This document shows, one piece after another, positions 6,882-43,079 of a DNA stretch of 58,555 nt. Within the stretch, counting starts at the first letter, position 1, and every line of letters begins with the position of its first letter. Source of the stretch: Acidobacteriota bacterium (GTDB lineage: Bacteria > Acidobacteriota > UBA6911 > RPQK01 > JADFOI01). Below the pieces are notes generated by a model. The model was not told where the DNA came from. It made no database searches and worked only from the letters and a program-made list of their open reading frames with translations. Location of the stretch: assembly GCA_022562935.1 (NCBI GenBank), contig JADFOI010000003.1, positions 1-58,555 on the forward strand, in the 5' to 3' direction. The translations under genes were made by a program, and so were the position numbers.

Positions 6882-7480
6882 CCTCTGCCCTCAAGATAGT
6901 CTGCCAATTTCTTGCGCACGGCGAGCCGACCCCGGTGAATTCGAGTCTTGGCGGTGGCTTCTTTGAGCCCCAGTAGGGAAGCAATCTGCTTGATCGGATA
7001 CCCTTCGGTATCCCTCAGGACCAGCGGGACGCGATATTCAAAGGGTAGCGATTGGATGGCCTCGTAGAGCTGGCTTGCCAGCTCTGCATTCAGAATGACA
7101 TCCTCTGGGTCCACCGACCAGCGGAAGAGTGAACCGTGAAGGTGGCCATCTTCGGAGAAGGTGGGAGCGTACTCCTCCAATTGGATCTCCCGTCCACGAC
7201 TGGACCGGCGTTTTCTCAGCCACATGATGGAGTTATTGATGGCGATCCGTTTCATCCAGGGCCAGATGTCGCTCTCTTGGCGAAAGGTGTCGATTTTACG
7301 AATGACCCTGAGCAAGGTGTCTTGCAGAATCTCCTCAGCATCAGGCGGATTCTTAGTGTAATTGAGGATCACGCCAAAGAGAGGTCGAGAGAACTGCTGA
7401 ATGAATTCATCAATGACTTCTGTATCAGCATCCTTGAGTCCCTGGATGATCTGCTGCTGTCCTAATTCCTTGGTTTTCAT
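6878..7480 (-). CDS. ECF RNA polymerase sigma factor
   Basis: DAEEILQDTLLR...FRQES...WMKRIAIN region 2; LPFEYRVPLVLRD.EGY..KQIA..LG...ATAKTRIHRGR region 4. Confidence 0.93.
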   Translation of the reverse strand: MKTKELGQQQIIQGLKDADTEVIDEFIQQFSRPLFGVILNYTKNPPDAEEILQDTLLRVIRKIDTFRQESDIWPWMKRIAINNSIMWLRKRRSSRGREIQLEEYAPTFSEDGHLHGSLFRWSVDPEDVILNAELASQLYEAIQSLPFEYRVPLVLRDTEGYPIKQIASLLGLKEATAKTRIHRGRLAVRKKLADYLEGRG

Positions 7481-7575
7481 TTACCGCCTTCTAACCACTA
7501 CCATACAGAAAAGCTCTTCCACTGGGAAGTGTCCCTCCATTGCTTTTCCGTCTCTGGAGTTGATACGATTCGGGT

Positions 7576-10410
7576 ATGAAGTGGCTGATTCTCCTTCTGT
7601 CTTCCGGGGTGGCGATGGCCTCTTTGGAAGCCGAGTCCCTGGCCGTCAGTCCACCTGGAGCCACTCAGACTCCAGAGTATTTCAAAGCATTTGAGTTCAG
7701 GGAAGACAAGGGAAGTTTGACCCGAGTCGTTCTGCGAAACGGTTTGACGATTGTGATCGAAGAACAGGCGCTGGATCCGCTGGCGACTGTGGTGACCTAT
7801 ATCCGGGCAGGTCACTCACAGGAAGAGGCAGGGAATATCGGGGTCACTGACCTTCTCGAGCGGCTCTATCGGCATCGAAGCGAAGTGGTTTCGGAGATGG
7901 TTGGCCTGGGAGCGGTGCTGAAGATCACCACCCGCTACGACAGTACTGTATTTTCTTCTTCTGTTCCGGCTGAAAATGTTCTCAAGACTCTGGAGTTTCA
8001 CGCCGCATTGTTGCAGGCTCCTGAAATTGATTTAGGTGCCATCGGCCGGGAGGTAGAAATCCTCTTGCAAGAGAGACTCCTCCAACTGGATCTGCCACAG
8101 GTCTTTGCCAGGCAGAAACTCCTGGAGTTGGCCTATCCGGAGCAGCGATGGGGAGATCCGCTTTCTTTGGAGAAAAGCTTCACGGGGATGGCACAGACGG
8201 ATGCCACCCTTCAGCAGCTGACTCGTTTTCATGAAGCTCATTACTACCCTGGAAATGTCATACTGGTCGTCTCAGGAGCGGTGCGCCGGGAGAGGATCCT
8301 GGAGAGGGTGGTGGAAACTTATGGCTCGTTGAGATCATCGAAGAAAGCCTCCCAGGTTTCAAAGGAGAACTCTGCTGATCCATCGACGGTGGGGCAAACC
8401 TCGTTTCGGTATCTTCATCTGCGTGGGAACCATCTGCAACCCTATTTACTTTTCGCCTATCGGATTCCGGGGCTTGAGCACGATGATTACTATCCGCTGC
8501 TGGTCCTTTCCTACATTCTGGGACGAGGGCGTGGTGCACTTTTGAAGCAGTCGATGCTCGGGGAGGGCGGTACGGCCGCTGATGTTCGAGTGGAAGTGGA
8601 GGCCCTTCAGAGCAAGGGAACTCTGTTCTTTCTCGTGACTCCTCATCTGCAAAGGGTCGATGGTGCGGAAGTTGAGGTGCTGGCCCAACTGGAGATACTC
8701 AAACAACGGGGAATTCCGATTGCCCAGTTGGACCGGGCTAAAGCTCTCATGTTGAAGGATCACTATCTGGGACTCCAAAGGCTTGAACAGCGAGCCAACG
8801 CACTGGCCCGCTATGAGGCGATGGGAGACTACCTTCAGCGTGACCGTGAGGTGGAACTGCTCACGCAAATCACTTCCAAACAGGTCAGCGATGTGCTGGA
8901 ACGCTATTTGACCGACTCCAATCTCTCCCTGCTGGAATACTTTCCACAAGAGGCCGAATCGCGTCACTTCACTTCTCAAACCCTTCTGGAAACCCTGCGC
9001 CTCCTGGTTCCCAGCGTTGTGAAGAAAAGTGCCGAAGAAGAAGACCCGTTCCAGGTCGCCGAGACCGAGTCCAGCTTCCAGCCCCCAGTATTCAGGCCCA
9101 GCCACTTGAAGTTTGATCTCAAGCACACTTCGATTCTGCGAGGGCCCGTGATTCACTTCAGGGAAGAGCATGCCTTTCCTCTCGTGCATTTTGGGTTTTT
9201 CTTTCCGGGAGGTCGAATCAAGGAATCGAACCAAAACAGCGGGATCACTGAAGTGATGCTTCGAGCCTTGCTTCGAAACGTGGTCTCTCGTGAGAATGCC
9301 CTTTCCTGGATGGATTTGGAGCGTCTGGGAACTGAGATCAGGGTCGTGAATGAACCCGATTTCTTTGGATTTCAGGCCATCGTTCTCTCGCCTCACCTGG
9401 AGAAAGTGTTTGAAACCCTGATCGATTGGACTCGCAGCGCAGCGGTGAAGGAAGAGGATCTTATCCTGGCCCGGCAGGAGGTCCTGGCGCTTCTTAACGC
9501 TGAGAAGGAAAACAGATCCCTGCGGCTTCTGGGCTTGACGCGAAGACGGGTGTTTTATGACCATCCCTATGGCTGGGATCGATACGGGACGTTGGAGAGT
9601 GTTTCCGGCTTTTCCCTGGAGTCTCTTCAAACTTGGGTGGAAAGTGAAATGACGGGTGTCCATCCCTGGATCATGGTCCACGGGGATATCGAAGGGACCT
9701 CCTTTTTAAGGAATTTTGTCTCCACGCTGAGTGACTCCAGCTATGAAGTCCGTAAGCCCATCCAAAGAGGGATATCCCAGCAGGAAGATTCGTCGGAAGC
9801 CAAGGGAGAGCCTATCTTCGAAGAAGAGGAGGATGAGGTGATGATGGCCTTTTCCGGACCAGCCAGGGGAACGCGTGACGAGGCGATTATCGATGTCCTG
9901 GAAGGGGCTTTGTTCCGTCCAGGCGGTCGCATTTCAATTTCCCTTCGAGACCAGGGTCTTGCCTATCAACTCAAAATGTTCCATCAGACAGGCCTCAGTG
10001 GGGGAGCCCTTTTCGCTTCTTTTGCCGCCCTGGATGGAAAGGGAAAAGCAGCCCGCGACGAGTTATTCAAGCAGTTGGGTCAGCTCAAGCAGGTCCCACT
10101 ACGGGAGAAGGAATTTTTCAATGCCGTGGTGGGTGCCATCACCAGGGCTCACGTTCGACAACAATCGGGAGAGGACTACATTGTCGAGCTGGGGCACCAT
10201 GTCTTGGCAAAAGAGGGAGTTGATCCCACTCGACAGTATCTCACCACGCTTAGAAGGGTTAAACGGGAGGACCTCATGGCTCTGGCTAAGAGATACTTTG
10301 GAGAGCAGGAAGCAGAAGTGAAGGAGACAGAAGTGAGGAGACAGGAGACAGAAACCGAAAAGGAGACCCCAGAACCTACAACTCCGAGTCCAAGACCGAG
10401 TTTGAGATGA
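7576..10410 (+). CDS. Secreted M16 (insulinase/pitrilysin-like) family protein, zinc motif degenerate
   Basis: Signal peptide; two M16 halves (LRNGLTIVIEE...; FPGGRIKES..NSGIT). HxxEH is replaced by DLLER. Confidence 0.85.
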   Translation: MKWLILLLSSGVAMASLEAESLAVSPPGATQTPEYFKAFEFREDKGSLTRVVLRNGLTIVIEEQALDPLATVVTYIRAGHSQEEAGNIGVTDLLERLYRHRSEVVSEMVGLGAVLKITTRYDSTVFSSSVPAENVLKTLEFHAALLQAPEIDLGAIGREVEILLQERLLQLDLPQVFARQKLLELAYPEQRWGDPLSLEKSFTGMAQTDATLQQLTRFHEAHYYPGNVILVVSGAVRRERILERVVETYGSLRSSKKASQVSKENSADPSTVGQTSFRYLHLRGNHLQPYLLFAYRIPGLEHDDYYPLLVLSYILGRGRGALLKQSMLGEGGTAADVRVEVEALQSKGTLFFLVTPHLQRVDGAEVEVLAQLEILKQRGIPIAQLDRAKALMLKDHYLGLQRLEQRANALARYEAMGDYLQRDREVELLTQITSKQVSDVLERYLTDSNLSLLEYFPQEAESRHFTSQTLLETLRLLVPSVVKKSAEEEDPFQVAETESSFQPPVFRPSHLKFDLKHTSILRGPVIHFREEHAFPLVHFGFFFPGGRIKESNQNSGITEVMLRALLRNVVSRENALSWMDLERLGTEIRVVNEPDFFGFQAIVLSPHLEKVFETLIDWTRSAAVKEEDLILARQEVLALLNAEKENRSLRLLGLTRRRVFYDHPYGWDRYGTLESVSGFSLESLQTWVESEMTGVHPWIMVHGDIEGTSFLRNFVSTLSDSSYEVRKPIQRGISQQEDSSEAKGEPIFEEEEDEVMMAFSGPARGTRDEAIIDVLEGALFRPGGRISISLRDQGLAYQLKMFHQTGLSGGALFASFAALDGKGKAARDELFKQLGQLKQVPLREKEFFNAVVGAITRAHVRQQSGEDYIVELGHHVLAKEGVDPTRQYLTTLRRVKREDLMALAKRYFGEQEAEVKETEVRRQETETEKETPEPTTPSPRPSLR

Positions 10411-36699: not shown

Positions 36700-37332
36700 A
36701 TGCGTGAGGTTGTTGAGCAGCTCAAATTCTTTTCGGATCTAGGCGTGACCCATCTCAACGTGGGAACAGACGACTCTCCCCAATCACTCGAGGACATCCG
36801 TCAGGAGATTGGCGATTGCCGGCGTTGCAAGCTGTGGGAGAGGCGCAATTCCATTGTGTTTGGAGTGGGGAATCCGGAAGCTGATCTGATGTTTGTGGGG
36901 GAGGCTCCGGGGGCGGACGAAGATGCTCAGGGAATACCCTTTGTGGGGCGGGCCGGCAAGCTTCTGACCAAGATCATAGAAGCCATGGGCCTGACCCGAG
37001 AACAAGTCTATATTGCCAACATCGTAAAATGCCGTCCTCCGGGTAATCGCGATCCTCAGCCGGATGAGGTGGAGACCTGTGAAGGCTTTTTATTTCAACA
37101 AATCAAGGCTGTCCAGCCCAGGATTATTGTGGCTTTAGGCAGGCATGCTGCTCAGCTCCTGCTGCAAACGAATACTCCCATTTCCAAGCTCCGGGGAGAA
37201 TTCTTTCAATTTCAAAACAGTCTCCTGATACCTACCTTTCATCCTTCTTATCTGCTTCGCAATCCTTCGTCCAAGCGTCAGGTGTGGGAGGATATGAAGG
37301 CCGTTCAGGCGCGCTTGAAGGAAATGGTGTAA
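36700..37332 (+). CDS. Uracil-DNA glycosylase family 4 ([4Fe-4S])
   Basis: CRRCKL, VGEAPGADED, PFVGRAG, NIVKCRPP.NR, TFHPSYLLR. Confidence 0.94.
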   Translation: MREVVEQLKFFSDLGVTHLNVGTDDSPQSLEDIRQEIGDCRRCKLWERRNSIVFGVGNPEADLMFVGEAPGADEDAQGIPFVGRAGKLLTKIIEAMGLTREQVYIANIVKCRPPGNRDPQPDEVETCEGFLFQQIKAVQPRIIVALGRHAAQLLLQTNTPISKLRGEFFQFQNSLLIPTFHPSYLLRNPSSKRQVWEDMKAVQARLKEMV

Positions 37333-37351
37333 GAGAGAAGACAGGAAACCC

Positions 37352-37432
37352 CAGCCGGAAGACCGGCTGAAATTCAAAATTCAAAATCCCAAACTAGAAC
37401 CTGGAACCTGAATTCCGAAATCAAAACTTGGA
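37352..37432 (+). repeat. Hairpin-heptamer composite module
   Basis: CAGCCGGAAGACCGGCTG, (AAATTCA)n, (CCTGGAA)-type units. Confidence 0.85.
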
Positions 37433-37441
37433 ACAATTCTT

Positions 37442-39700
37442 GTGAGCGCTCTCTTTGCCGATGTGGCCGTGCCTCTCCCTCTCTTCCAGACTTTCACCTA
37501 CTCTGTCCCGGATTCCCTCGGGGACGAGCTTCACCCCGGGTGTCGTGTCTTGGTGCCTTTCGGTACCCGTCATTTGGTCGGTTTGGTGACCCAATTGCAC
37601 CGGGAATCTCGGGAGGGAACGGTCAAACCCATTCTCGAGACTCTGGACCGGAAACCTCTTTTATCTCCTCCACTGCTCAAGCTTGGCCTGTGGGTGGCTT
37701 CTTACTATCTTGCTCCGCCAGGTGAGGCGCTGCGAGTGATGTTACCACCCGGGTTGTTGGCGAAGAAGGTGGCGCTGGATGAAGACCAACCAGTGCAGCG
37801 GTTTTGGCCGACCAAACAACGCTTGGCTGTGGTGGAGATGACCTCTGTTGAGGTCAAATTGACGGCAAGGCAGGAGGAAGTTGTTGAGTTGCTGAGTCAA
37901 AGGACTCTTCCCGTGGCGGTGCAGCCGTTTTTAAGGGATGTGGGGTGTAGTCCGTCGGTACTTCAAAAACTGGTCTCTAAAGGGATCATCCGAATGGAAG
38001 CGGTTGAGAGCTATCGTTCCCCCTGGGCTCAGTCTGAGACCTTTCCGGAAGTCCAAAAGCACGACCTGAACAAGGATCAGCGCCGAATCTTCGAAAAGAT
38101 TGACCAGCACCTCTCCATGAACCGATTTCACAGCATGCTGATCCATGGTGTTACGGGAAGCGGGAAGACCGAGATTTACCTGAACGCCATCGCCAGTACG
38201 CTAGCTCGCGGAAGATCAGCGCTGGTTCTGGTTCCGGAAATCGGGTTGACTCCTCAGATCTCCCGTTATTTTCGAGCCTGGTTTGGAGAAGAGGTGGCTA
38301 TTTTACACAGTGCCCTCTCGGTAGGAGAGCGCTTTGATCAATGGCGGAGAATCCGAGACGGCCAGGCTCGTGTGGTGGTGGGAACCCGTTCAGCCGTTTT
38401 TGCTCCACTCGCTGAGTTAGGAATCATCATTGTGGATGAAGAGCACGACAGTTCCTACAAACAAGAGGAATTGCCGCACTACCATGCTCGTGACGTGGCC
38501 CTCAAACGGGGAGAACTCGAACAAACGTTGGTGATCCTGGGTAGTGCAACTCCTCAGTTGGAGACGTTTTATAACTCTGTCCATGGCGGAGCCCCCGAGT
38601 ACGAGGCTCTCAATTCACGGATTCTGGAACGTCCTCTTCCAACCGTACACGTGGTCGACATGCGGGTCGAGTTTCAAAAGCGAGGCAAAGCGGTTGTCCT
38701 GTCCCAACACCTTCAGGAATCCATCGCCGAAAGGTTGGATCGCAAGGAGCAGGTCCTGATCTTGTTGAATCGGCGGGGATACGCGTCGGTCCTGCTGTGT
38801 CGAAGCTGTGGGAATACAGAGATCTGCGAAAACTGCAGCCTTAGCCTCACCTATCACCAGGATTCCAACCGCTTACTTTGCCACTATTGTGGGTATCTGA
38901 GGTCTGTTCCCCAACGATGTCGAGCCTGCGGCAACAAGTATATTCACTTCCTCGGTCACGGCACCCAGAAGGTTCAGGAAATCCTGAGAACTCTCTTTCC
39001 GAAAGCAGCCATAGCCCGTTTGGATCGGGACACGGTCCAGAGGAAGGGGAGTCTCCAAAGGATTCTGGGGGCTTTCGGGTCGGGTCAGACCGATATCCTG
39101 ATTGGAACCCAGATGATCGCCAAGGGACACGATTTCCCACGCGTCACGCTGGTGGGAGTTTTAACTGCTGAGCAAGCTCTTCGGATGGCCGACTTTCGTG
39201 CTTCGGAAAGAACCTTTCAACTTCTCACCCAAGTTGCGGGGCGAGCAGGAAGAGGAGAACAGCCCGGGGAAGTGATCATCCAGACCTACTATCCCGATCA
39301 TTACAGCCTGAAACACGCTCGTTCTCAAAATTACCGGCTCTTTTTTGAGGAGGAGATCCGTTTCCGGCGCAATTTTCGCTATCCCCCCTTCACAGCCCTG
39401 GCCAACCTCATGGTCCAAGGGCGACCCCAGGCGAAGACCCGGCGGGCGGCAGAACAGGTAGCTGACCTGTTACTTCGGCAACGGACACGCCTTTCAGCTC
39501 AACGGCGCATGCGGGTTCTTGGACCTGCCCAGGCACCTCTTGAGAAACTCAAGGGCGATTATCGGTTCCAGATTTTGATCAAGAGCACCAATCGAAAAGA
39601 GCTTCATGAAGTGCTCGAGTCTGCCATGGAAGAGCTGAGCCAGAAGAGAGTCAAGATAAGAAAGCCTTCCATTGATATTGACCCGATGAACTTGCTCTAA
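37442..39700 (+). CDS. priA: Primosomal protein N'
   Basis: GVTGSGKTEIY, LVPEIGLTPQ, DEEHD.SYKQ, LNRRGY, CxxC zinc motifs, GTQMIAKG.DFP. Confidence 0.97.
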   Translation: MSALFADVAVPLPLFQTFTYSVPDSLGDELHPGCRVLVPFGTRHLVGLVTQLHRESREGTVKPILETLDRKPLLSPPLLKLGLWVASYYLAPPGEALRVMLPPGLLAKKVALDEDQPVQRFWPTKQRLAVVEMTSVEVKLTARQEEVVELLSQRTLPVAVQPFLRDVGCSPSVLQKLVSKGIIRMEAVESYRSPWAQSETFPEVQKHDLNKDQRRIFEKIDQHLSMNRFHSMLIHGVTGSGKTEIYLNAIASTLARGRSALVLVPEIGLTPQISRYFRAWFGEEVAILHSALSVGERFDQWRRIRDGQARVVVGTRSAVFAPLAELGIIIVDEEHDSSYKQEELPHYHARDVALKRGELEQTLVILGSATPQLETFYNSVHGGAPEYEALNSRILERPLPTVHVVDMRVEFQKRGKAVVLSQHLQESIAERLDRKEQVLILLNRRGYASVLLCRSCGNTEICENCSLSLTYHQDSNRLLCHYCGYLRSVPQRCRACGNKYIHFLGHGTQKVQEILRTLFPKAAIARLDRDTVQRKGSLQRILGAFGSGQTDILIGTQMIAKGHDFPRVTLVGVLTAEQALRMADFRASERTFQLLTQVAGRAGRGEQPGEVIIQTYYPDHYSLKHARSQNYRLFFEEEIRFRRNFRYPPFTALANLMVQGRPQAKTRRAAEQVADLLLRQRTRLSAQRRMRVLGPAQAPLEKLKGDYRFQILIKSTNRKELHEVLESAMEELSQKRVKIRKPSIDIDPMNLL

Positions 39701-39707
39701 TGTAAGA

Positions 39708-41225
39708 GTGAAAACGGTTCGAATCCATGGCGAAGTTTTGGAGAAGATGGTTGAACATGCTCGTCGTGAATACCCACTGGAGTGTTGTGGGCTCTTGTCA
39801 GGCAGCGGTTGGGAGATCGATGGCATACAAGCAACCGGGAATCAAAGACAGAGCCGTGAAGAATTTTTCGTCCCGGTTGAGGAACTCTTTGCATTTTTTA
39901 GAGGATTGCGGCGAAGTGGCAGAGAACATCTAGGGATTTACCATTCTCATCCCACGTCCAGGAGCCTTCCTTCCTCTCGTGATGTGGCCGAGTTTCACTA
40001 TCCGGAGGTGAGTTACTGGATTGTTTCCCTGAAGGGAGAAGAGCCGGATGTCCGCTGTTTTCGCTGGGACAAAAGGGATTTTAAAAATGTTGACTTTGAG
40101 GTGTATGAAGATCACGGAAAACGGCCACAACAGTGTAAAATGAAATCAGTGCAGACAATCCCGAGAGAACCGGACATTTTTGCCAATATTCGAGATTCGG
40201 CTCCCGTTGAGCTGCTGGGTTTTCTGGATCAAATTGTCCTCCTGTTGCCTGAGGGGTCCAGATATCGTCTCAAGCAGGTCTTCGATTCTTTGCCTCCCCA
40301 GGGCGATAATCTGCAAAAGGTCCTGGAGCTGGTTCGGAGTCAATGGAAGGACATTCAATCTCAGGAGTGGGTCCGAATCGCAATTGTCGGTCCGGGACAG
40401 ACAGGAAAATCCTCACTCCTTGCTGCGCTGTCCAGACGACAACGGGCTGGATCGACGCCCATCTTCACCCTGGTCGATATTCATGACGAGTATCTGGGTT
40501 TCAAACCCGATGAGACGCTGTCTGAGAAACTCAGGGATTTCGACCTCATCCTGTTGATTCTGGATGGTCGATATGAGCTCTCCAATAGCACAACGGAAAT
40601 GTATGAGAGACTCAACAGCTTGAATAGGCCGGTCCTGGTTGTCCTCAACAAGATCGATCTGGTCCAGACGCCTCGGGATGCGGTCAGAGCGGCCCGAAGG
40701 CGTTTGGGAACCAGCGTATTTGCTACCTCTGTGGATCAACCGGCAACTATTGAGCAACTCTTGAAAGCAATTCTGGACACGGACCCAAAGACCCTTTCTT
40801 CCCTGAGTCAAAATTTTCCAGACTTCCGTCGCGGTATCTGTCATGGAATCGTCAGCCAGGCCGCACTTTCGGGAGCCATCGTGGGGGCCATTCGAATTCC
40901 CATAGCCGACCTTTTACCCATAATGGCCATTCAGACGGGAATGCTCTTGAAGATCGCGCGGACTTTCGGATATCCACTTAACCGGGAAAGAGCCCGAGAG
41001 CTGCTGCCCATGTTGGCGGCTGGAGTTGCCGTCCGAGAGGGGAGCCATTGGCTGAGACGCCGCTATCCCGAATATCGGAAACTTATTTCCATATCCGTTG
41101 CGGGAATCTGGACTTTTGTTCTAGGACATGCGGCCGTTCAATATTTCGACGGTTTGTCCAATTTTCTGAACGACGATCGATCCGCTGACTTTCCGTCGCC
41201 TGCCATGGGTTGGGAGATTCACTGA
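39708..41225 (+). CDS. JAB/MPN (M67) metalloprotease fused to a P-loop GTPase-like and DUF697-like domain
   Basis: PLECCGLL...YHSHP....PSSRD JAMM motif; GPGQTGKS, NKID; hydrophobic GAIVGAIRIPIADLLPIMAIQTGML. One open frame in the track. Confidence 0.8.
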   Translation: MKTVRIHGEVLEKMVEHARREYPLECCGLLSGSGWEIDGIQATGNQRQSREEFFVPVEELFAFFRGLRRSGREHLGIYHSHPTSRSLPSSRDVAEFHYPEVSYWIVSLKGEEPDVRCFRWDKRDFKNVDFEVYEDHGKRPQQCKMKSVQTIPREPDIFANIRDSAPVELLGFLDQIVLLLPEGSRYRLKQVFDSLPPQGDNLQKVLELVRSQWKDIQSQEWVRIAIVGPGQTGKSSLLAALSRRQRAGSTPIFTLVDIHDEYLGFKPDETLSEKLRDFDLILLILDGRYELSNSTTEMYERLNSLNRPVLVVLNKIDLVQTPRDAVRAARRRLGTSVFATSVDQPATIEQLLKAILDTDPKTLSSLSQNFPDFRRGICHGIVSQAALSGAIVGAIRIPIADLLPIMAIQTGMLLKIARTFGYPLNRERARELLPMLAAGVAVREGSHWLRRRYPEYRKLISISVAGIWTFVLGHAAVQYFDGLSNFLNDDRSADFPSPAMGWEIH

Positions 41226-42139
41226 TGGGGCAAGGCGGCAGGGAGGAACTGGCTGAGTTGGCTTTGGGGCGTCGCAAGGGAACGCGCTCCTTGCGCATTG
41301 CACTCCTCATTACCGCGATCTTTCTGATGGTGGAGTTTGTGGGCGGCCTGTGGACCAACAGTTTGGCTCTATTGGCGGATGCCGGACACATGCTCACAGA
41401 TGCCGCTGCATTGAGTCTGAGCCTGTTTGCAATGGGGTTCATTCTCCGCCCAGCTACTTCCGAGAAAACCTATGGCTACTTCAGGGTGGAGATCTTAGCT
41501 GCCCTGATCAACGGTTCGGCTTTGTTGGTGATTGCCTTTTTTATCCTTTACGAAGCCTACCAGCGTTTCCTGCAGCCGGAGGCGATAAAAAGTCTGGAGA
41601 TGCTGGTGATTGCAGCTGCGGGTCTGGTGGCGAACCTGACTTGTGCTCGCATCCTGCACCAATGTGAGGTCGACAGTCTCAATATTCGAGGAGCTTATCT
41701 GCATGTGATAGGAGACGTTCTGGGCTCCGTGGGTGCCATCCTTGCCAGCCTGGTCATCTTGTTCTGGAAGGCTTATTGGGCCGATCCCGCAATCAGTGTT
41801 CTGGTCAGTTTCCTCATTCTGTACAGTGCCTGGAAGTTGGTCAAGGATGCCGTTTTAGTCCTCTTGGAGGGCACGCCGTCCCATGTCAATTTGGCGGCAA
41901 TGAAGCAGGCCCTTTGTAAGGTTGCGGGGGTGGACTCCGTTCACGATCTTCATGTCTGGACATTGACTGCCGGTGTGCATGCCATGACTTGTCATGCAGT
42001 GGTGGCTCAGGCCAACGGCCGGCGTCGGATCCTGGAGCAACTCATTTCCGTCTCTCGGGAGCAATTCAACATTCTTCACGCGACGATTCAGATCGAACAT
42101 GAAAATCCCTGTCCCAATGAAACAACTTTTTGTCATTAG
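41225..42139 (+). CDS. Cation diffusion facilitator (CzcD-like)
   Basis: SLALLADAGHMLTD (TM2), GAYLHVIGD (TM5), VHDLHVW, HATIQIE. ATG overlaps the upstream TGA. Confidence 0.93.
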   Translation: MGQGGREELAELALGRRKGTRSLRIALLITAIFLMVEFVGGLWTNSLALLADAGHMLTDAAALSLSLFAMGFILRPATSEKTYGYFRVEILAALINGSALLVIAFFILYEAYQRFLQPEAIKSLEMLVIAAAGLVANLTCARILHQCEVDSLNIRGAYLHVIGDVLGSVGAILASLVILFWKAYWADPAISVLVSFLILYSAWKLVKDAVLVLLEGTPSHVNLAAMKQALCKVAGVDSVHDLHVWTLTAGVHAMTCHAVVAQANGRRRILEQLISVSREQFNILHATIQIEHENPCPNETTFCH

Positions 42140-42197
42140 CCCCTACCCTCGCTTTCCGAGGTCGGAACTGTCTGGAAGAAAGGACCCGTCCAACTAG

Positions 42198-43079
42198 ATG
42201 CCCAAAGAGTTTGACAGGAAGTCTTCGGATTCGAAGCGTCCGACTGAAGATGATACAGGGGGGCCGCCCGTCAACCGGCCCCTTCAACAGAGTCCGGAGA
42301 CGCTTGCACTCAACTATAACTGGATCGGGCAGTTTCAGAGCCAGCATTCCGACTATTCGTTTGTCAAGAATGAGGAGATTCCCTGGACCGATCTCAAGGT
42401 GGACCTGTTTGAAGCGCGTGTGGCTCTTGTGACCACGGTGGGAGTTCACCTCAAGGATCAGAAGCCCTTCAGTATCTCTCCGGGAGAGATCACCCCGGAG
42501 TTGTCCCAGTTCAATTTCCGGGAAAAGGGAGATCCTAGTTTACGCCTGATACCGGCATCAGTGGATGTCAGCGAGTTGTGGATTGCCCATCCCTATCTGG
42601 ATGTGAGTGGGGTAGAAGAAGATGTCAACGTCGTTTTTCCCTTGAAAAGGCTGCAAGAACTGGAGGAGGAGAACGTCATCGGAGAGATCGCCACTCAACA
42701 TATTTCCTTTATGGGCTACGTGCCCAACCCGGTGGACCTGGAACTTTCTGCAAAGGATGCCGTTGAACACCTCAGGCAAGATCAAGTTGACCTTGTTGTG
42801 CTGACTCCAGGCGAAGTCTTGAGCCACCAGAGTATGGTGGTGATCCAGCGAGCCATTGAAGCAGCCGGCATTGCCACCATCAGCATCGCCCTCTGTCGCG
42901 ATGTGGTGGAATCGGTAGGAACACCCCGATCGGTTCATTACGGTTTTCCCTTCGGGTTTACTCTGGGAGAGCCCAACGATCAGGCAGTCCAGCTGAGAAT
43001 CCTGAAGGATACGCTTCGCTCCCTGGAGGACATCGACCAACCGGGAACCATCGTGGATCTCCCCTACGAATGGGTATGA
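42198..43079 (+). CDS. GrdB/PrdB (reductase selenoprotein B) family homologue without Sec
   Basis: RVALVTT.G.HL..Q.PF, GDPS.R.IP, D.NVVFPL.RL.EL, SFMGY, VIQRAIEAAGIAT, GTPR. Confidence 0.82.
   Translation: MPKEFDRKSSDSKRPTEDDTGGPPVNRPLQQSPETLALNYNWIGQFQSQHSDYSFVKNEEIPWTDLKVDLFEARVALVTTVGVHLKDQKPFSISPGEITPELSQFNFREKGDPSLRLIPASVDVSELWIAHPYLDVSGVEEDVNVVFPLKRLQELEEENVIGEIATQHISFMGYVPNPVDLELSAKDAVEHLRQDQVDLVVLTPGEVLSHQSMVVIQRAIEAAGIATISIALCRDVVESVGTPRSVHYGFPFGFTLGEPNDQAVQLRILKDTLRSLEDIDQPGTIVDLPYEWV

Follow-up and report, generated by a model that had tools for sequence, protein, structure and literature searches.

The open reading frame at 39708..41225 (+ strand) of the 58,555-nucleotide stretch of DNA analyzed here (the window) joins a JAB/MPN+ (JAMM) peptidase to a ~360-aa protein, labeled GT697 here, in which a three-helix N-terminal region precedes a reduced G domain and a DUF697 domain. 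Comparison of this locus with its relatives indicates that the fused gene is a real, recent, and reversible joining of two neighboring genes. We consider it probable that the peptidase matures the sulfur carrier ThiS and that its fusion to GT697, its neighbor in the operon, is simply tolerated. According to this reading, the fused JAB half would keep the job of the free JAB, that of a metal-dependent peptidase exposing the C-terminal Gly-Gly of a sulfur carrier, and the substrate would most likely be ThiS, which is made either with a tail after its GGG or as one protein with ThiG. Joining the two proteins would not be mechanistically required for this activity.

Architecture of the fused gene

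The frame begins at a GTG, is open throughout, and encodes 505 aa. Gene callers elsewhere have chosen the ATG at 39747, which gives a product of 492 aa; we favor the GTG because JAB orthologs show conservation ahead of M14, in a stretch that the structure model folds as a strand and a helix. The peptidase domain occupies aa 1-135 (39708..40112, +) and is recognized by its Pfam family (Prok-JAB, PF14464, aa 9-120, E=2.3e-20, 73 bits against a cut-off of 25), by its motif, and by its AlphaFold2 model. The original prediction of an intact JAMM motif is borne out, with E25 in PLECCG (aa 23-28), H79 and H81 in HSHP (aa 79-82), and S89 and D92 in PSSRD (aa 88-92), and the motif is invariant among 13 JAB orthologs. 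The linker that follows (aa 136-155; 40113..40172, +) combines the former JAB tail with what is left of the intergenic spacer and with the ATG at 40140-40142, where the GTPase gene used to begin. This internal ATG had been pointed out together with an out-of-frame TAA (40136-40138) and an upstream TTTTAAAAA tract (T/A), and all three are present.

The remainder of the chain corresponds to GT697. Its three-helix N-terminal region (aa 156-222; 40173..40373, +), delimited by ortholog alignment and the model, has no family match in Pfam; the helices lie at aa 167-213 of the model, and the region is conserved in 30/30 aligned orthologs, with an F, a P, and a W invariant. The reduced G domain (aa 223-358; 40374..40781, +) matches MMR_HSR1 (aa 223-315, 27.4 bits, cut-off 21.9) and GTP_EFTU (aa 272-355, 28.0 bits, cut-off 26.5). 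As had been claimed, it carries a G1 P-loop, GPGQTGKS (aa 228-235; 40389-40412), and a G4 motif, NKID (aa 314-317; 40647-40658), whose K and D are invariant across the GTPase-DUF697 family, and it is missing the G3 DxxG, the degenerate site reading VDIHDEYLG (aa 256-264; 40473-40499). The C-terminal DUF697-type helical domain (aa 359-492; 40782..41183, +) has a marginal match to PF05128 (aa 379-442, 28.6 bits against a cut-off of 27.7) and contains a hydrophobic helix-break-helix at aa 377-417 and a hydrophobic helix at aa 459-477, with Kyte-Doolittle 19-residue peaks of 1.9 and 1.8, in agreement with the hydrophobic DUF697 C-terminus that had been proposed. NCBIfam gave sub-threshold matches only, to desampylase (63 bits against 130) and to Era/Der/MnmE-type G domains. 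Prok-JAB, MMR_HSR1, and DUF697 are thus found in one chain here, although most relatives carry two genes. The architecture appears to be undescribed, as originally suggested, with no description of a JAB, a G domain, and DUF697 together in the libraries of families and the papers that were searched; the component families are known.

The gene is closely packed between its neighbors on the same strand. The stop of priA (37442..39700, +) lies 8 nt ahead of the fused ORF, and a cation-diffusion-facilitator (CDF) gene (41210..42139, +) overlaps its 3' end by 16 nt and belongs to the same operon. A scan of 37300-42300 found no promoter- or terminator-like sites above chance within the operon, and the base composition of the fused gene is unremarkable. 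The claim that no ubiquitin-like or E1 gene is encoded nearby also stands, as there is no ThiS/MoaD-family or ThiF-type E1 gene on the window's contig, all of the genome's matches being on other contigs.

Structure models and relationships of the GTPase half

AlphaFold2, run on a 31-row alignment for the whole fused chain, gave a model with a mean pLDDT of 80 and a pTM of 0.60, compared with a pTM of 0.75 for GT697 alone, so that the JAB has no confident placement against the remainder of the protein. The linker is predicted to be disordered over ~20 aa (pLDDT <50 at aa 138-153), and its sequence is without a Gly-Gly. The JAB model closely resembles PfJAMM1 (5lda, TM 0.90) and DSY2949 (2kks, TM 0.81). 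The fold of the G domain is nearest to the G domains of EngA, EngB, and Era, and is modeled with five strands. Because only ~18 residues separate the P-loop GKS from the G3 strand throughout the GT697 family, the family lacks switch I and strand beta2. Most of its members have the DxxG motif, in the form VDxQGL or (D/E)xxGL, and it was a deletion of the residues GL that removed DxxG in the window's subclade, from fused and split proteins alike (P0001-P0015, P0019, P0036). The DUF697 part is modeled as five long helices, for which no matching solved structure was found, and our reading of the literature on DUF697 found no functional account.

From these features, the GT697 half may be regarded as a putative membrane-associated, guanine-nucleotide-binding protein that is unlikely to act as a canonical switch. 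It could represent a one-chain counterpart of pairs consisting of an NTPase and a DUF697 protein, such as YcjX and YcjF, which are nearly always adjacent and are stress-responsive (PMC3041696). It also shares the order of a G domain followed by a hydrophobic helical DUF697 domain with proteins of the MMR_HSR1 plus PF05128 type, and NCBI gives two GT697 orthologs the corresponding name, 'GTP-binding DUF697 domain-containing protein'. Unlike these proteins and YcjX/YcjF, however, GT697 adds the three-helix N-terminal region and is without switch I, the window's subclade is without the Gly of DxxG, and an N-terminal JAB occurs only here. The top whole-chain Foldseek matches, IRG/IIGP1, mitofusin/BDLP, and IniA, likewise run from helices to a G domain to a helical domain, but this likeness is loose (TM ~0.3, rmsd 11-13 A), concerns the layout, and does not speak for kinship.

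An ancestral gene block restricted to one order

Orthologs in species-representative genomes all come from Acidobacteriota metagenome-assembled genomes (MAGs). GT697 is encoded in 57 of 61 relatives, which represent 27 genera of one order of Acidobacteriota, and in 41 of these 57 a JAB ortholog lies directly upstream; across the 61 relatives, the ortholog is found nowhere else. In split relatives, the free JAB is ~135-150 aa and GT697 ~360 aa, and the spacing between the two genes is mostly -4 to about +70 nt, ATGA overlap included. They sit in the conserved arrangement Era-UDG-PriA-JAB-GT697, with CDF, KdsB, and PyrG frequently coming next, and this block can be recognized down to 42-46% identity. 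Two co-transcribed genes within Era-UDG-PriA-JAB-GT697(-CDF) are the ancestral and usual state in the order. An even sample of 200 genomes from the phylum placed both the JAB ortholog and GT697 in this single order, with GT697 present in 16/16 of its genomes versus about 0/185 elsewhere, and distant proteins with a G domain and DUF697 (from Chloroflexota, Burkholderiales, and others) had no JAB neighbor.

GT697 is also kept without the JAB ortholog in 16 genomes from at least seven lineages, with its N-terminal region unaltered. These 16 genomes contain only a Mec+-type paralog (29-39% identity) or no JAB whatever; they include three nearly complete genomes of one genus (G038, G057, G060) that have kept GT697 and have no JAB and no ThiS/MoaD-family gene. 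Both the JAB ortholog and GT697 are missing in two genomes (G012, G013). Downstream of the pair, the kdsB region is disrupted or preceded by an insertion in the close relatives L001 and L005 (about 7086-8426) and L002 (7061-8212), L001 having a minus-strand 174-aa ORF there and L002 a DDE transposase.

Origin, reversal, and repetition of the fusion

A search of 5.8 billion proteins returned five clusters at 88-98% identity (from ENA, Logan, and JGI) that are fused, with lengths of 492-495 aa. All the other clusters, whose identity ranges between 91% and 44%, have lengths of 355-363 aa and start precisely at the internal ATG. The same fused ORF is present in assemblies from ENA (L003, L004, L066), Logan (L065, a 119-member cluster), and JGI (L067), as well as in genome G004. 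Since several relatives are fused, it is not the case that all relatives have two separate ORFs, the outcome named beforehand as contradicting a fusion, although most of them are indeed split. In the split relatives L068 and L069, the two genes are in the same frame, with one TAG and a ~50-nt spacer between them, and an alignment of the junction against these two shows that the window and L003, L004, L065, L066, and L067 have in common a 45-nt in-frame deletion that removes the JAB stop; G004 has the identical deletion. It took away the stop together with most of the spacer and tied an intact JAB to GT697. The original prediction had cautioned that one indel could have joined two genes; this came close to what happened, a deletion having joined them, but not as an assembly error, as at least six other assemblies carry the fusion. 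The protein tree of the GTPase part did not settle whether the fused forms make up one clade, and the shared deletion is the better marker of the fusion. The combined alignment of JAB and GT697 (A4) includes read-through rows from L068 and L069.

The fate of the junction varies among close relatives. In L067, the internal ATG has changed to ATA. In L001 (784-kb contig, 85% identity), the genes for the JAB (149 aa) and GT697 (361 aa) meet in an ATGA overlap. Whole-genome searches within the window's own genus found the gene fused in G004 and split in G002, G003, G005, and G006. In G001, the deletion of the fused type is accompanied by a linker TAA (EDHG*QLQQCKM), and G001 is thus a secondary re-split of the fused gene by nonsense mutation in a sister species. 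This first fusion is limited to some members of the window's genus.

When 1.84 billion cluster representatives were searched, a further fused protein, P0091, came to light, of 519 aa and with 52% identity over aa 5-489. Its JAMM motif is intact, it has a different linker of ~35 aa that retains the old Met, and its G3 site is a normal ETPG; it is present on 3 contigs in the context PriA-[JAB-GT697]-UDG, and its nearest genome relative (L011) has split genes. This distant family fused its JAB-GT697 pair independently. The split genes share a frame in 8/41 cases, which is not above chance. Several further candidates were rejected: a PriA-JAB fusion in L007/G037, which comes down to a long alternative frame that happens to be open in this GC-rich genome; G048 as a third fusion, as there is a stop after the JAB and GT697 is frameshifted; and G015, G054, G044, G055, and G022, in which the matches cross in-frame stops and the genes are split. 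The GT697 ortholog of G048 (L073, G048:C14:825491-826960) extends across two frames, the cause being either decay of the gene by a frameshift or a fault in the assembly.

The JAB and the state of ThiS

Sulfur-carrier JAMM/MPN+ enzymes have defined substrates, CysO for Mec+, QbsE for QbsD, and the SAMPs for HvJAMM1/PfJAMM1. It is established biochemistry that a free C-terminal glycine is required for the adenylation of ThiS-type carriers, and the known agents that expose the C-terminal glycine of a carrier are JAMM enzymes (Mec+, QbsD, HvJAMM1). The window's own genome encodes three members of the ThiS/MoaD family, one CysO-like, one MoaD-like, and ThiS itself, which ends in HFVGGG-EEEKCLMI and so has an 8-aa tail after GGG. 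The tail exists because thiS (C19:6955-7191, - strand) overlaps thiG (C19:6197-6970, - strand) by 16 nt, the codons of the ThiS tail covering the RBS and ATG of thiG. Elsewhere in the order, too, ThiS either carries a tail, of 1-9 aa, or continues in frame into ThiG.

The ThiS-family C-termini were read in the relatives, and ThiS was tailed or ThiG-fused in 39/41 JAB-positive genomes, whereas in the 19 JAB-negative genomes it ends exactly at GGG in 5 and is absent in 7. Tailed or fused forms against all others thus stand at 39:2 in JAB-positive and 7:12 in JAB-negative genomes (Fisher p=2.4e-6 by genome), or at 21:2 and 2:7 once lineages are collapsed (Fisher p=3.3e-4), with the counts being drawn from related genomes of one order and the association being a phyletic correlation. 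The same contrast recurs within genera: in g17, the JAB and ThiS-ThiG are both present in three genomes and both absent in four; in g15, two genomes have the JAB and the fusion, and one has no JAB and a plain ThiS; and in g4, the difference between G009 and G012 follows the same direction. Exceptions occur on both sides. Among JAB-negative genomes, the five of genus g6 have a ThiS-ThiG fusion and G013 has a 2-aa tail; among JAB-positive genomes, G022 and G031 have a plain ThiS; and G008, which is 72% complete, is a further exception.

It follows from the distribution of the two traits that the presence of the JAB is tied to the state of ThiS and not to GT697, as far as the gene content of these genomes indicates, and the most economical reading is that the priA-linked JAB would mature ThiS. 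The tailed or ThiG-fused ThiS of the order therefore leads to the prediction that a dedicated JAMM peptidase beside priA should be needed. Against this, trimming of ThiS could instead be the work of the Mec+ paralog. The priA-linked JAB has the same fold, catalytic motif, and free size as Mec+, QbsD, DRJAMM, and HvJAMM1/PfJAMM1. Like DRJAMM, which cleaves a MoaD-MoaE fusion in trans (PMC8832034), it has its gene at a distance from that of the presumed substrate. It differs from these stand-alone enzymes in being fused to a GTPase-DUF697 protein in the window, and its assignment to ThiS comes from a phyletic correlation. It also differs from the operonic Mec+/CysO type in that it is not adjacent to a sulfur carrier or cysM, whereas its paralog on C48 is.

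Tolerated fusion or functional module

If the JAB and GT697 formed a functional module, the membrane GTPase would be the target or the partner of the peptidase, which might, for instance, be held at the membrane under nucleotide control or strip a modifier off GT697 or off clients of GT697, and the fusions would be 'Rosetta stone' evidence of a complex. We regard this as unlikely. The JAB does lie directly upstream of GT697 in all 41 genomes that have it, with a spacing that would suit translational coupling, and the shared order-limited range of the two genes and their joint absence in two genomes fit such a module, as do the two independent fusions and the loss of the internal ATG in L067. 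However, the unrelated housekeeping genes of the whole block are syntenic as well, and adjacency alone is for this reason weak evidence for a module. We accordingly place a tolerated fusion of neighbors ahead of the module because GT697 persists alone, the block is syntenic, G001 has undone the fusion, AlphaFold2 gives no confident docking, and the JAB tracks the state of ThiS; in addition, the linker offers no Gly-Gly to cut. The nucleotide-gated or self-cleaving protease of the original prediction finds no support for much the same reasons, namely, the restriction of the fusion to certain lineages, its reversal in G001, the disordered linker, and the 16 genomes with GT697 and no JAB. A more specific form of the module, in which the peptidase and GT697, with its lack of switch I, make up a physical membrane complex whose nucleotide or membrane status controls access to the peptidase, strikes us as doubtful. 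Were it true, maturation or recycling of ThiS-type carriers would be linked to the membrane, or ThiS/MoaD-type tags would be removed from membrane proteins, and the function of DUF697 GTPases would for the first time become approachable.

For the tolerated fusion, the evidence points to a lineage-restricted joining of neighboring genes with no sign of a new mechanism, and its main value therefore lies elsewhere. The locus provides a clean natural case of fusion, fission, and re-fusion, consisting of a 45-nt deletion, its reversal by a nonsense mutation, and an independent repeat. It also gives a modest lead for GTPase-DUF697 proteins, in the form of a vertically inherited, order-specific family without switch I, and this family and the association of ThiS tails with a JAMM peptidase are the more useful by-products of the analysis.

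Other carriers, defense, and artifact

A different carrier might be trimmed or deconjugated by the JAB, either MoaD with its GG+2 tail or CysO, with the fusion to GT697 again being incidental, but we judge this to be quite improbable. The MoaD-like protein of the window's own genome (C107:15356-15586, - strand) ends in GG-TG, the best NCBIfam match of the JAB is the sub-threshold desampylase, and DRJAMM acts on MoaD-MoaE (PMC8832034), all of which would suit a MoaD-type substrate. MoaD-type carriers across the order nearly always end in GG plus two residues (TG, AA, SR, RL, and others), with or without a priA-linked JAB. The C-termini of the relatives gave no association between MoaD tails and JAB presence, such tails being equally frequent in JAB-positive and JAB-negative genomes. 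CysO-type carriers, for their part, adjoin a Mec+-type paralog of their own in JAB-positive and JAB-negative genomes alike. In the window's genome, this is the cluster CysM, Mec+-type JAB, and CysO at C48:20106-21807, in which CysO ends in GG-AL and the JAB paralog (C48:21053-21484) adjoins both CysO and cysM; the cluster, which thus holds a second Prok-JAB paralog, is itself next to cysH, cbiX, and cobA-like genes. Elsewhere in the genome, a 257-aa frame with a weak Prok-JAB match (27.7 bits) lies beside a ThiF-type E1-like match (66.9 bits) at C105:16422-17406 (- strand), and the pair may be an E1-JAB module of another kind.

A defense-type JAB, of the CBASS Cap3-like or Bil deubiquitinase type, with a GTPase effector is scarcely credible, as the shared JAB fold (8tyx) and low-scoring matches to the JABs of PADLOC (24 bits) and to LeoA are set against a vertically inherited housekeeping block conserved across an order, an ordinary base composition, and, unlike in CBASS and Bil systems, the lack of any E1, Ubl, or CD-NTase (cyclase) partner beside the JAB in a variable island.

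The long ORF is also very unlikely to be an assembly or sequencing artifact, because independent assemblies share the junction: although the window comes from a draft MAG of 188 contigs and contains a strain-mosaic patch at 39542-39991, at least six other assemblies, which come from four sources and have diverged to dS 0.3-0.4, share the identical junction. Nor does it look like a decaying pseudogene. Pairwise comparisons within the fused clade at this divergence gave a dN/dS of 0.17-0.3 for both halves, which places both under purifying selection; the shallowest pairs are noisy, with a JAB dN/dS of 0.5-1.1 on ~10 changes. As for the patch, the window and contig L004 are identical over ~4.5 kb except for two stretches of mismatches, one at 39542-39991 with 32 mismatches in 450 nt, which runs from the 3' end of priA through two-thirds of the JAB, and a lesser one at 37592-37741 with 7 mismatches in priA. 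These patches have the look of a recombination tract or of a MAG consensus that mixes strains.
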